Source of the DNA: Escherichia coli
GTDB lineage: Bacteria; Pseudomonadota; Gammaproteobacteria; Enterobacterales; Enterobacteriaceae
Strand: one strand, 5' to 3'
Assembly: GCF_050320075.1 (NCBI RefSeq)
Contig: NZ_CP190018.1
DNA length: 64,000 nucleotides
Translations under genes and position numbers: made by a program
Notes under the pieces: model-generated
Databases searched by the model: none
Seen by the model: only the letters and a program-made list of their open reading frames with translations
What the model was told of the DNA's origin: nothing
Shown: piece after piece, positions 42,331 through 44,172 of the stretch
Layout: each line of letters opens with the position of its first letter
Numbering within the stretch: position 1 is the stretch's first letter

Positions 42331-44172
42331 ATGGATTTAAACATCTCAACCTTAACAAACAAGGTTGTATTTAAAGTTGATTTTGCATCATTACAGAAAG
42401 CAAGGGACGCAGGGAAGAAATTTCAGAAAGAAATGGAAAACCTAACCAATCCAACATTGAAAGGGAAGAAGGCTAAACGAGCTATAGACGAGGCTCATGA
42501 TCTGGTAAAGGCTCGTAAAGCTGCACAGGCTAAAACTGATGCCAAAGCGTCAGACAAGCAAGCTCAAACCGATAAGAAGAACGCTGATAAGGTGGCAAAG
42601 GCAGAAGCTAAAGCGAAGGCTAAAGCCGCTATAGCTGCCGATAAACAGATCCGCGCTAAAGCGACAATAGCAGAGAAAGCAGAGATTAAGCGCCAGCAAG
42701 CTTTCAGACAGCTTGAAGGGATTAAGAAAGGGCGTATGGGCGACGGTATGGACTCCGCCCAATACTACAAAACGTTGCAATACATCAAAGCACAAACGGC
42801 AGCGTATGAGAAAGGCGCTATTAGTCAGGCTAAGATGAATCACCTGATCCGTGATCGTATCACGTTAGAACGCCGTGCGGCTGCTGTAAAAGCTCGCCAG
42901 GTGGCGGCTGATGGCGGTAAATATCCACATATGGCTAAACAGCTTAAAGGCGGTCATATAGGCGGTGGTGTAGGTGCAATGGTGGGCGGTGCCGCTCTCA
43001 CTGCTGCCACTCTCGGCGGTGCTGCGATATTCAATACCGTAACCGATCAGGCAAGCAAGATCACAGACACTAACCGCAAGGCAAAGGCTGTCAACGTAAA
43101 CACTAACGCCCTGTTAGCACTTAATCAGTACGGCTTAGAACACGGTGTCGATAGTTCCGTAGACCAACGTCAAGACAACCTTAAAGACGTTCAAGAGCGT
43201 TTAGGTGAATCCGTAGGGAATACCAAATGGGACGCTAAGAAAGGTCGCTGGGCTGGCGGTAATGGTGCCGTCGATAACATCCTTAATAAATATGGTTGGA
43301 GTCCTGAACAGATTAAAGGTTTCCAGACTGATCCATTAGGTTTCCTGGGCGCTGTAGTGAAAGAAGGAGAACGCCGTGGACTCTCTGATCAGGAGCAGGG
43401 TCACATCCTTGAAGACCTTGGAAATGATTTACAATATTTCCGTGGTGCTTTCAGTCGTAACGGTGAAGAGCTAAATAAAACCATCGTTAAGATGCAAAAA
43501 GCCAATGCCACCTATGCGCAAGCGGATCTTGACGCTGCTGAACGTCTGCAAGCTGTACAGGCTAATATGAATATGGCCTGGGAAGGTAGTAAGAAAGCTA
43601 TCATGACGGGATTCGGTGAAGAGTTCGACGCTCAGGCTGGTGAAGAGTGGGCGCAAATGTTGAAAGATCTCAATCCTCTGTTTAAAGAACTTGGAAGCTC
43701 AACGGCTGAAATGATGAGCGCCTTTGCTGGTGCTGTATCGTGGCTTACTGCTGCATACCAGAATATAAATCCAGAGAACAAACATGAAAACCTTGATTCG
43801 TCCGGTATGTATTATAAGGATTCGTTTGTAGGCGGCATGGTTGATTGGGGTCGTAGTGCTTTAGGCTTATCGCCTATCCCTGGCACGGAAGACAAGCCAA
43901 CGACTGGCGGAACTGCAATTCAGAACTATTCAAGCCCGTCCGATAACGTGCAATCCCTGAAAGAGAACGTTAGCCGTGATCTGAACACTACCCCATCTAT
44001 GACGTATGCGCCAAGCATTGTCGTAAACGTGCCAGAAAGTAAGGTTGATGTGAATATCGCTCCTGATGGTAGTCAGCTTGGATCATACCTCGATTACAAA
44101 GTGGGAAGTATCCAACAAGATTTTGAACGTAGTTTCACGTTGGCGGCTCTGTCTGGGCAAGCACCAAGTTAA
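42331..44172 (+). CDS. hypothetical protein (613 aa), Lys/Ala-rich coiled-coil N-terminus and Gly-rich hydrophobic segment
   Basis: AKAKAAIAADKQIRAKA-type repeats; GGGVGAMVGGAALTAATLGGAAI segment; scaffold- or tape-measure-like composition. Confidence 0.45.
   Translation: MDLNISTLTNKVVFKVDFASLQKARDAGKKFQKEMENLTNPTLKGKKAKRAIDEAHDLVKARKAAQAKTDAKASDKQAQTDKKNADKVAKAEAKAKAKAAIAADKQIRAKATIAEKAEIKRQQAFRQLEGIKKGRMGDGMDSAQYYKTLQYIKAQTAAYEKGAISQAKMNHLIRDRITLERRAAAVKARQVAADGGKYPHMAKQLKGGHIGGGVGAMVGGAALTAATLGGAAIFNTVTDQASKITDTNRKAKAVNVNTNALLALNQYGLEHGVDSSVDQRQDNLKDVQERLGESVGNTKWDAKKGRWAGGNGAVDNILNKYGWSPEQIKGFQTDPLGFLGAVVKEGERRGLSDQEQGHILEDLGNDLQYFRGAFSRNGEELNKTIVKMQKANATYAQADLDAAERLQAVQANMNMAWEGSKKAIMTGFGEEFDAQAGEEWAQMLKDLNPLFKELGSSTAEMMSAFAGAVSWLTAAYQNINPENKHENLDSSGMYYKDSFVGGMVDWGRSALGLSPIPGTEDKPTTGGTAIQNYSSPSDNVQSLKENVSRDLNTTPSMTYAPSIVVNVPESKVDVNIAPDGSQLGSYLDYKVGSIQQDFERSFTLAALSGQAPS

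Follow-up and report, generated by a model that had tools for sequence, protein, structure and literature searches.

A tail tape-measure protein homologue on a 13.5-kb integrative island of Escherichia coli that may act as a satellite of Stephanstirmvirinae phages

The window analyzed here (the whole stretch of Escherichia coli DNA, 64,000 nucleotides in length) contains a gene for a 613-aa homologue of phage tail tape-measure proteins (TMPs), carried by a 13.5-kb island integrated at tRNA-Gly (Table 1). In strain 2015C-3101 (NZ_CP027221), where the island is intact, it is flanked by a perfect 22-nt repeat that matches the tRNA-Gly 3' end, the copies lying 13,541 bp apart. The island copy in the window has neither attR nor an intact integrase: the first ~20 integrase codons are replaced by IS1, with the IS1 end at position 45442, so that the enzyme is 391 aa long here compared to 406 aa in the intact island, and identity begins 60 nt inside the intact gene. 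Because IS1 took out attR together with the integrase 5' end, the island is probably immobilized in this strain, but the TMP gene is intact despite this damage. To the left, the island in the window borders on another element, P4-like and with an Icd-like protein and a DUF927 primase, which occupies about 13.1-31 kb. All products of the island are annotated as hypothetical.

Table 1. Features of the island and of the tape-measure protein gene, with window positions.
Feature	Position	Strand	Basis
Left attachment-site copy (tRNA-Gly 3' end), left island border	32061..32078	+	TTCCCTTCGCCCGCTCCA
Small serine recombinase	33789..34346	-	RefSeq annotation; NCBIfam invertase/resolvase-type matches
Putative replication initiator (O-like/DnaD-like HTH)	37032..37697	+	PHROG 270/391/186/345, E 7e-6 to 4e-4
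69-aa homologue of phage anhysbys gp057	39243..39452	+	tblastn 43.5% identity, E 1e-13; PHROG 27862
Two small genes (71 aa, 123 aa) upstream of the MCP gene	40331..40920	+	Conserved in all islands
Major capsid protein (MCP), Phage_cap_E fold family	40939..41967	+	Pfam PF03864, E 2.5e-11
63-aa putative HTH protein	42121..42312	+	Weak HTH matches; conserved synteny
Tail tape-measure protein (TMP) homologue	42331..44172	+	ORF; PHROG 16051; phage-TMP alignment; PDB 21vq_V profile match; dN/dS
TMP: N-terminal motif common to island and phage TMPs (aa 1-41)	42331..42453	+	Alignment A1
TMP: Ala/Lys-rich, positively charged helical region (aa 42-200)	42454..42930	+	Composition, charge, predicted helices
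TMP: Gly/Ala-rich hydrophobic segment (aa 208-236), the "membrane-like" stretch of the first-pass annotation	42952..43038	+	Only region with KD19 >1.0
TMP: conserved core (aa 240-480), best-conserved and best-predicted part	43048..43770	+	A1 invariant columns, pLDDT
TMP: variable C-terminal region with conserved ...L-SGQ- tail	43771..44169	+	Alignment A1
Tyrosine integrase of the island	44280..45455	-	Pfam Phage_integrase

The TMP gene runs from ATG to stop and is present in the RefSeq annotation, with 100% identical copies in other strains and more than 140 homologue clusters for its product. Compared with a 93%-identical allele it showed 102 synonymous and 32 non-synonymous differences with no indels or stops, and at a dN/dS of 0.074 the gene is, by this measure, under strong purifying selection. 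The RefSeq annotation, the homologue clusters and the dN/dS value together mark the ORF as a real gene rather than a chance reading frame. Pfam, NCBIfam and PADLOC returned no match for the protein itself. Its AF2 model was almost all helical (mean pLDDT 55.8), and a Foldseek search of this model against the PDB gave no significant match; weak matches to MltF (probability <=0.1) were disregarded. The first-pass annotation had described the protein as Ala/Lys-rich over its N-terminal 200 aa, with a Gly-rich membrane-like segment behind. Both descriptions hold: aa 1-200 contain 20% Ala and 17% Lys with a net charge of +23, and GGGVGAMVGGAALTAATLGGAAI, found at aa 211-233, is the sole part of the protein where the Kyte-Doolittle mean over 19 residues exceeds 1.0 (peak 1.61, windows 208-221). 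The "AK-rich repeats" of the same account stand as an AK bias within helix but not as true repeats, Tandem Repeats Finder giving just a 6-nt microrepeat of 3.7 copies at 42605-42626.

By homology, the 613-aa protein is a relative of the TMP of Stephanstirmvirinae myoviruses. It matched PHROG 16051 ("tail length tape measure protein") with an E value of 2e-64 and PHROG 2854 with 5e-15, and BLASTP aligned it at 29-30% identity with gp254 of phage anhysbys (E 5e-58) and, end to end, with the TMP of phage contig L017 (E 3e-83). Matches to the TMP were recovered by tblastn in 134 phage records, and all of those listed or inspected were 142-161-kb genomes of the phAPEC8/phi92 type. The family profile matched Phi92_gp134 in the PDB (21vq_V, E 1.6e-153), and since entry 21vq also contains the tube-initiator-like gp135, the phage homologue appears to be a virion component. 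The gene order in anhysbys is sheath, tube, frameshifting chaperone, the TMP homologue gp254, tube initiator and hub; the same order from sheath to hub was found in phage contigs L017, L026 and L032, and was confirmed in seven phage loci. The island protein is homologous to a protein in TMP position, as well as long and helical with a hydrophobic segment and matched by a curated model (PHROGs), although a further mark of TMP genes, a cognate G/GT-type frameshift tail chaperone directly upstream, is missing and the 63-aa HTH-like gene is found there instead. Homology to the Stephanstirmvirinae TMPs (phi92 gp134, anhysbys gp254 and the phAPEC8 group), which come from phages of the same host genera, extends over the full length. 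However, identity is only 27-41%, the island TMPs are 11-52 aa shorter (610-635 aa compared to 646-662 aa among the sequences compared), and the island gene sits without the chaperone, sheath, tube and baseplate genes of the tail cluster that holds its phage counterpart. The tape-measure resemblance remarked on in the first-pass annotation is thus borne out by sequence homology, while its suggestion of a scaffold-like morphogenetic factor has to be dropped, the protein being a TMP homologue and not a capsid scaffold; homology to a housekeeping protein, named there as a reason to abandon the assignment, was not found.

In an alignment of eight island and two phage TMPs (A1) the two groups proved collinear: the N-terminal motif is followed by the charged helix, then by the Gly-rich hydrophobic segment and the core, and LSGQ lies at the C-terminus. 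The N-terminal motif, in which N10, F14, A24, K33 and P41 are invariant, is recognizable in anhysbys gp254 as well. Helices are predicted in the AF2 model at aa 41-71, 79-132, 142-160 and 166-193, and a block of about 35 aa of the adjoining charged helix is absent from all eight island TMPs and kept by both phage TMPs (alignment columns about 201-235); the counterpart of the hydrophobic segment lies at aa 246-272 in the phage TMP. Most of the invariant columns fall in the core, where pLDDT reaches 75-91 at aa 250-400, and distant relatives of 770-1000 aa, two of them carrying Pfam Tape_meas_lam_C, match the hydrophobic segment and core. At the C-terminus, L604, S608, G609 and Q610 are invariant. 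Residues 478-513 in this region match one phage TMP variant at about 75% identity, with a nucleotide identity to L017 of 76% across 84 nt, and this local patch points to limited exchange between islands and phages. Hydrophobic segments of TMPs are thought to enter the membrane during DNA ejection, and the Gly/Ala-rich segment would be a normal TMP feature of this kind, presumably inserting into the inner membrane when the protein is ejected in front of the DNA. An earlier proposal that the protein is a membrane-active effector may be kept in this TMP-type sense of membrane insertion, but not as a separate effector function, the segment being conserved in phage TMPs.

The rest of the island contains few genes of a virion. 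As the first-pass annotation had observed, the TMP gene stands alone after capsid-like genes: the Phage_cap_E gene precedes it, and the island has no other tail gene. The island MCP is very divergent, with 24-26% identity to Stephanstirmvirinae MCPs and matches in the PDB to 9zbi_A and Phi92_gp124, and its gene has a dN/dS of 0.115. Portal, terminase, protease, sheath and tube genes were absent from the island ORFs by size or similarity (Pfam, PHROGs), the largest ORF besides MCP, TMP and integrase being 221 aa; the gene-less stretches had no long ORFs, and there were no baseplate genes in the window island. No small-terminase-like gene, pac or capsid-size factor was identified in the island, and an Rfam search of it found nothing. 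A homologue of the tail assembly chaperone was found in none of the islands, which suggests that the chaperone of a helper is used. The 63-aa gene lies directly upstream of the TMP gene throughout the island family; it was considered as a mini tail chaperone and rejected (hhalign probability <1% against the phage chaperone, with weak HTH signals alone). The 123-aa gene was likewise considered as a decoration-protein homologue, but hhalign was negative and the AF2 model (pLDDT 52) was too poor to search. The small serine recombinase is possibly a resolvase, and its position is occupied by a small tyrosine recombinase in sister islands. HMM scores for the putative replication initiator were weak, with Pfam HTH_36 under its cut-off.

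In a survey of 5426 complete E. coli genomes, the TMP allele was present in 63 and MCP-related islands in 344 (about 6%), and related islands occur in many Klebsiella; TMP homologues are also carried by Citrobacter and Pluralibacter. The compact island synteny is kept at both glyU and thrW of E. coli as well as in Klebsiella, and gene order stays constant between lineages and genera that are deeply diverged and differ in integrase and att site. The left-end cargo differs between islands. Some sister islands have a tube-initiator gene 55-66% identical to that of the phages. One relative (contig L004), a variant without the long integrase, has a 30-nt terminal overlap lying within a gene, and the contig thereby closes into a circle of 14,251 bp. 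The reads behind L004 are those of SRR16178778, and IMG metagenome 3300045988 contains island and phage contigs together. A neighbor-joining tree built from 13 island TMPs and 6 from phages separated the two groups in 100 of 100 bootstraps, and recent repeated capture of the TMP from phages is rejected on this split. Island TMPs have at most about 41% identity to phage TMPs in the databases, too little to single out a specific helper.

We consider it somewhat more probable than the opposite, at roughly 60%, that the gene encodes a TMP on an integrative island acting like a satellite of the Stephanstirmvirinae (phAPEC8/phi92 group). The element combines att sites, an integrase, a replication-initiator-like gene and a size of 13.5 kb, within the span of about 7-20 kb usual for satellites, with the lack of most virion genes, an anatomy in line with the helper-phage context suspected in the first-pass annotation. 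Five genes are shared between islands and Stephanstirmvirinae (MCP, TMP, the tube initiator of sister islands, a gp057-like and a gp209-like gene), and noncoding blocks are common to both. A shared helper-specific late-promoter motif was considered but was uninformative, since the phage late region and the island both have ordinary strong sigma-70-type promoters. Stephanstirmvirinae are virulent myoviruses of about 150 kb. Infection by such a helper would lead the island to excise and replicate, and its own divergent MCP may form small island capsids. The island TMP would replace the helper TMP on helper-made baseplates, to which some sister islands may add their own tube initiator, and helper tube and sheath would then polymerize around it, giving a chimeric tail about 2-8 nm shorter, equivalent to at most about two tube rings. 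In this way the island TMP could reserve a pool of tails for the satellite, and could also allow the satellite to interfere with the helper TMP while itself unharmed. Several observations count against the satellite reading: the MCP is only ~24% identical and yet would have to use the portal, protease and scaffold of the helper; the island has no recognizable tail assembly chaperone, whereas PLEs encode one, nor a small-terminase-like gene, pac or capsid-size factor; attR and an intact integrase are missing from the window copy, and the long integrase from the circular variant L004; and the low identity to database phage TMPs points to no particular helper.

The closest parallel is with the PLEs of V. 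cholerae (PMC11838301, PMC12987554). Besides a TMP they encode a chaperone and a baseplate hub protein, and TEM, western blot and mass spectrometry showed that they build chimeric tails, ~10 nm shorter, on ICP1 parts. The PLE is a satellite of a large virulent myovirus with a TMP of its own, shorter than that of the helper, and the island would be another. Identity to the helper-type TMP is 20% in the PLE and 27-41% in the island, and in both the small baseplate/tube-initiator protein is closer to that of the helper (41% in the PLE, 55-66% in sister islands). However, the PLE module consists of TMP, TAC and BhuB while the island has no chaperone (TAC) gene, the PLE has a large serine integrase and a RepA_N-type initiator and the island a tyrosine integrase, and PLEs reshape the helper coat protein through TcaP where the island has its own MCP; hosts and helper group also differ. 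On this comparison the island would be a functional analogue of the PLE and, set apart by gene content, is not a member of the PLE family. The EPIP satellites of Mycolicibacterium, of about 11 kb, are reported to encode both MCP and TMP and to have altered tail lengths (bioRxiv 10.64898/2025.12.02.691453). They resemble the island as small elements with both of these genes, but differ from it in having a small terminase, head-tail adaptor, stopper, scaffold and serine integrase. In addition, EPIP tails are longer, not shorter, and the EPIP helper is a temperate siphovirus. In cf-PICIs the head and packaging module is complete, with terminase subunits, portal, protease and connectors. Like the island, they are chromosomal elements of Enterobacteria that bring their own HK97-fold capsid gene, and putative tmp genes are reported in some, but the island has the MCP alone of that module (Pfam, PHROGs). 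Hallmarks of P4-like satellites (Psu/Sid/Delta, alpha primase-helicase, P4-type integrase) are not annotated in the island, and a literature search for satellites of Phapecoctavirus, Stephanstirmvirinae or phAPEC8 found nothing relevant.

A different function, which we regard as unlikely, is defense by interference with assembly, in which the island TMP and MCP would act as dominant-negative "poison subunits": joining the baseplate or capsid proteins of an infecting phage, they would abort virion formation and so protect the population, while the island itself is not packaged. In A1 the TMP is conserved with its phage counterparts at both ends, where contact with other tail parts is likely, and diverges from them in the middle, and the strong purifying selection, the many Klebsiella alleles and a left-end cargo that varies between islands, as in defense-carrying elements, would all suit such a role; interference with tail assembly is also documented as a defense in Tai systems (PMC11364771) and PLE11 Rta. 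However, the att sites, integrase, replication module and circular form fit a self-transmitting element, a complete and constrained MCP and a tube initiator exceed the needs of a poison, and PADLOC gave no match. Defense and satellite transfer are moreover compatible, as PLEs do both. It is much less probable that the island is a decaying remnant, either of a defective prophage or of an ancient capture of structural genes, in which the TMP gene has no present function. The few structural genes left, the IS1 damage in the window copy and the annotation of every product as hypothetical would agree with decay, but dN/dS values of 0.07 (TMP) and 0.12 (MCP), the lack of frameshifts between alleles that differ at ~7% of TMP nucleotides, a compact gene order that deeply diverged lineages and genera keep while differing in integrase and att site, intact att repeats in 2015C-3101 and the circular form of L004 count against it. 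The related phages are furthermore described as lytic, and anhysbys has no annotated integrase, so that they would leave no integrated remnants. Least probable is an autonomous mini virus or capsid-forming PICI that encodes everything for its own heads, with an unrecognized portal and terminase among the hypothetical proteins, and has its own tail module or takes helper tails only. Although the island encodes its own MCP and the PLE study (PMC12987554, in Extended Data Fig. 10) notes putative tmp genes in some cf-PICIs, no ORF is large or similar enough for a portal, large terminase, protease, sheath or tube, and the gene-less stretches contain no long ORFs.

Within the satellite reading, a broader proposition stands at about even odds: that the islands of E. 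coli, Klebsiella, Citrobacter and Pluralibacter form an undescribed family of Enterobacteriaceae satellites that parasitize virulent ~150-kb Stephanstirmvirinae, with a private capsid made of the highly diverged MCP and a chimeric, shortened tail in which the island TMP, in some cases joined by an island tube initiator, is combined with helper parts. This would make them an enterobacterial counterpart of PLE-ICP1 and a natural determinant of resistance to phages employed in therapy. In the literature found, satellite-encoded TMPs were first reported in 2025-2026 (Vibrio PLEs and mycobacterial EPIPs). The island TMPs, 11-52 aa shorter and combined with either an own or a borrowed tube initiator, offer a natural comparison for tail length and TMP selectivity, in a system open to direct testing with existing strains and phages. 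If the island family works like PLEs and EPIPs, tail remodeling by satellites would be widespread in E. coli and Klebsiella, and satellites of virulent phAPEC8/phi92-type phages, of which there were none in the literature searched, would be revealed. Such islands, which many K. pneumoniae and about 6% of complete E. coli genomes carry, could then limit the efficacy of phAPEC8/phi92-type phages, and could carry DNA from strain to strain.

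The ORF proposed in the first-pass annotation was confirmed from start to stop and encodes 613 aa, annotated as hypothetical in the genome. Its Lys/Ala-rich N-terminus stands (residues 1-200: 20% Ala, 17% Lys, net charge +23), whereas the "repeats" described there are compositional, the sole tandem repeat being a 6-nt unit (x3.7). The hydrophobic string GGGVGAMVGGAALTAATLGGAAI was found as quoted, at residues 211-233, and is the protein's only hydrophobic stretch (Kyte-Doolittle 19-residue mean up to 1.61). Pfam, NCBIfam and PADLOC gave no match, and a Foldseek search with a low-confidence AF2 model was a dead end. 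The suspected resemblance to tape-measure proteins (TMPs) was borne out by PHROG, BLASTP and family-profile matches to phage TMPs. Residues 215-611 matched PHROG 16051 ("tail length tape measure protein", E 2e-64), residues 165-611 matched gp254 of the Stephanstirmvirinae phage anhysbys (BLASTP, E 5e-58), and residues 1-613 matched the TMP of phage contig L017 (BLASTP, E 3e-83). Similarity in sequence to phage TMPs extends beyond a single domain. All family members have in common the N-terminal 40 residues, the Gly-rich hydrophobic segment and a C-terminal ...LSGQ, and distant relatives of 770-1000 aa retain the hydrophobic segment and core region, with Pfam Tape_meas_lam_C present in two of them. 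Sequence comparison establishes the protein as a TMP homologue. The proposal of a membrane-active effector was dropped, since a conserved Gly-rich segment is ordinary in this family of TMPs and does not represent an added effector module.

A TMP nucleates via its C-terminus on the baseplate hub and tube initiator, is held by a chaperone and becomes surrounded by the polymerising tube; it sets tail length, with each residue accounting for about 1.5 A, and leaves ahead of the DNA at ejection. A tblastn search of 50,697 phage records returned 134 matches, and all those listed or inspected were 142-161-kb Phapecoctavirus/Justusliebigvirus-type genomes, members of the Stephanstirmvirinae (phAPEC8, phi92 and relatives). 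In anhysbys the homologue gp254 (662 aa) follows genes for tail sheath, tube and a tail assembly chaperone with frameshift extension, and precedes the Dit-like tube initiator gp253 and the baseplate hub, an order that recurs in six further phage loci. The TMP family profile matched Phi92_gp134 (659 aa; PDB 21vq chain V) over its full length (E 1.6e-153). This structure also holds gp135, the tube-initiator homologue; the phage counterpart of the island TMP is thus a structural tail component.

The TMP gene lies in a 13.5-kb integrative island. In strain 2015C-3101 two perfect copies of the 22-nt direct repeat TCGATTCCCTTCGCCCGCTCCA lie 13,541 bp apart, one at the tRNA-Gly(CCC) 3' end and the other just past the tyrosine integrase gene. 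Genes for portal, terminase, protease, sheath, tube and baseplate were not found in the island, and no ORF is big enough to conceal one. By hhalign, the phage decoration protein showed no similarity to the 123-aa protein, whose AF2 model was also a dead end, and the 63-aa protein was rejected as a tail chaperone after a negative comparison with the phage chaperone. Rfam gave no match, including for the 880-bp gene-less stretch, where promoter sites and hairpins suggest two non-coding RNAs. The 2.3-kb stretch may serve as an origin, iteron set or packaging site; a comparable gap is present in all related islands.

Features of the island and related loci. Rows down to the integrase gene follow the order between the 22-nt att repeats; positions are in the window unless a contig or phage is named.
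Feature	Position	Description
Variable cargo		YecR lipoprotein gene and small ORF here; first after the tRNA-side repeat
Small serine recombinase		
Gene-less stretch, 2.3 kb	34347-36700	Two ~60-nt direct repeats; perfect 23-nt tandem duplication (TTCCTACCTACCCAGGAAATGAG x2)
Replication-initiator-like gene		PHROG O-like/DnaD-like, weak scores
~10 small ORFs		
Gene-less stretch, 880 bp, no ORF	39453-40330	Near-consensus promoter TTGACT-17-TAGAAT (39472-39500); second TTGACA-type site, spotted by eye; terminator-like hairpins (39719-39740, 40251-40283)
Genes for 71-aa and 123-aa proteins		
Major capsid protein (MCP) gene		Phage_cap_E
HTH-like gene		63 aa
TMP gene	42331-44172 (+)	ATG at 42331, stop ends at 44172
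Integrase gene		Opposite strand
TTCCTACCTACCCAGGAAATGAG duplication/repeat region	L001 7916-8255	Equivalent to window ~35246-35585
Noncoding block	33703-33781	Just 3' of serine recombinase gene; 78% over 81 nt to anhysbys 55126-55206
Fur-box-like sequences	L004 8781-9042; L005 2861-2879	Gene-less region before replication genes
Annotated repeat region	anhysbys 43392-43486	89% identical to 37-nt blocks (Fur-box-like sequences plus flanks) of L004
344-aa protein gene	L004 1677-2711	In MCP slot
P4-like satellite	~12930-32060	Between tRNA-Gly and island
Three consecutive large hypothetical genes	~23054-30401	In P4-like satellite; 843, 686, 918 aa
att copy, 18 nt	32061-32078	
IS1	45442-46200	

In the window, a P4-like satellite sits in tandem with the island at the same tRNA-Gly, with an att copy left. 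It encodes an integrase, an Icd-like protein, a DUF927 primase, SSB and a ProQ/FinO-like protein, and its three large hypothetical genes look like defence cargo. IS1 truncates the island integrase, removing the first ~20 codons, and its insertion is associated, relative to 2015C-3101, with loss of attR, a GH15 gene and ~11 kb (most) of the adjoining ETT2 type III secretion cluster. With attR and the 5' integrase codons lost, this copy is probably immobile; the TMP gene it carries shows 100% identity to the copies in intact islands.

Of 5426 complete E. coli genomes, 63 contained the window TMP allele and 344 had islands with a related MCP, including a tRNA-Thr (thrW) lineage with a different integrase and a second glyU lineage. 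More than 100 clusters of TMP homologues (615-621 aa) came from Klebsiella pneumoniae and K. quasipneumoniae, and others from Citrobacter and Pluralibacter. All inspected loci kept the core order of small gene, ~120-aa gene, MCP, ~63-aa HTH, TMP and integrase, while replication and cargo modules were swapped. Three lineages (L004, L015/16 and L019) carry an extra gene directly 3' of the TMP gene, its product 55-66% identical to phage gp253 and, among PDB entries, matching both Phi92_gp135 and a protein named "tube initiator protein". The ends of island contig L004 (Logan SRR16178778) overlap by 30 nt within coding sequence and gene order continues over the junction, so that the contig represents a 14,251-bp circle, a variant without the long integrase. 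Its 344-aa protein has no detectable BLAST similarity to the window-island MCP and no Pfam match, while the flanking regulatory genes are 77-93% identical; it may be a second capsid gene, unrelated or extremely diverged, swapped into this slot.

Several further features connect the islands with Stephanstirmvirinae phages. These phages are among the top full-length phage matches of the island MCP, though at only 24-26% identity, and Pseudomonas phages match it too; phage gp057 has a 69-aa counterpart in the island (43.5% identity), gp209 is matched by a protein of 67-72 aa from Klebsiella islands, and short noncoding blocks are common to both. Among the tail proteins of the phages compared, the TMP evolves fastest. 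Since phages with MCPs 90-94% identical have TMPs that share only 41-45% identity, island TMPs at 30-41% are not far outside phage-to-phage distances, unlike the island MCP. Phage and island TMPs separated in 100 of 100 bootstraps (NJ tree, 13 island and 6 phage TMPs) and differed in length (610-635 vs 646-662 aa, respectively); a ~35-aa charged-helix block before the hydrophobic segment is absent from the island rows in an alignment of eight island and two phage TMPs. A local patch at residues 478-513, where the window allele is ~75% identical to one phage variant (76% at the nucleotide level), suggests limited exchange.

The block 3' of the serine recombinase gene resembles anhysbys irrespective of reading frame and might represent a regulatory site or small RNA common to island and phage; in the phage it lies within a 1.6-kb unannotated stretch with a Fur-box-like sequence just upstream. 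The Fur-box-like blocks may reflect mimicry of a helper operator or origin, or iron/Fur control of both. Promoter comparison was a dead end, with a generic sigma-70 consensus in phage and island. Island and candidate helper co-occur in IMG/VR metagenome 3300045988, which yielded two island-bearing and two Stephanstirmvirinae contigs (L020, L025, L030 and L033).

The closest functional precedent, and an experimental one, is the PLE satellites of Vibrio cholerae, which encode a TMP, chaperone and small baseplate hub protein 20%, 20% and 41% identical to those of their helper ICP1 (PMC11838301, PMC12987554). In PLE virions both the TMP and the hub protein are PLE-encoded, and the ICP1 versions are excluded; the PLE TMP is 95 aa shorter, giving tails ~10 nm shorter, and because PLE virions use their own TMP, Rta of PLE11 can block the helper TMP with PLE11 unharmed (PMC11838301, PMC12987554). 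EPIP satellites of Mycolicibacterium also encode a TMP (bioRxiv 10.64898/2025.12.02.691453), and putative tmp genes are reported in some cf-PICIs (PMC12987554). By analogy, we infer a PLE-like logic in the island. In cells infected by a phAPEC8/phi92-type helper, helper baseplates would receive the island TMP in place of the helper's own, and in some lineages likewise the island tube initiator. With a TMP 11-52 residues shorter, chimeric tails would lose ~2-8 nm, no more than about two tube rings, and small heads for the 13.5-kb genome would be assembled from the island's MCP.

Most of the data also fit a purely defensive role, in which the island supplies poison subunits and is not packaged; defence and transfer may go together. 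Decay of the island is contradicted by architecture conserved across genera, by intact att sites and by selection: relative to a 93%-identical allele in strain 28A18CPO003A, the TMP gene has 102 synonymous and 32 non-synonymous differences, no indels and no stops (dN/dS 0.074; adjoining MCP gene, 0.115), a substitution pattern indicating that it is functional. An autonomous virus or cf-PICI is contradicted by the island's gene content.

TMP homology alone is ordinary, and the interest lies in the gene's location. We found no paper tying satellites to Stephanstirmvirinae or describing this island family, in a literature search that was thin in subscription journals. The island differs from PLE in its own MCP, its lack of a chaperone gene, its hosts and its putative helper group. 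While satellite-encoded TMPs for chimeric tails have been known since 2025-2026, these features of gene content, hosts and helper group would be new.
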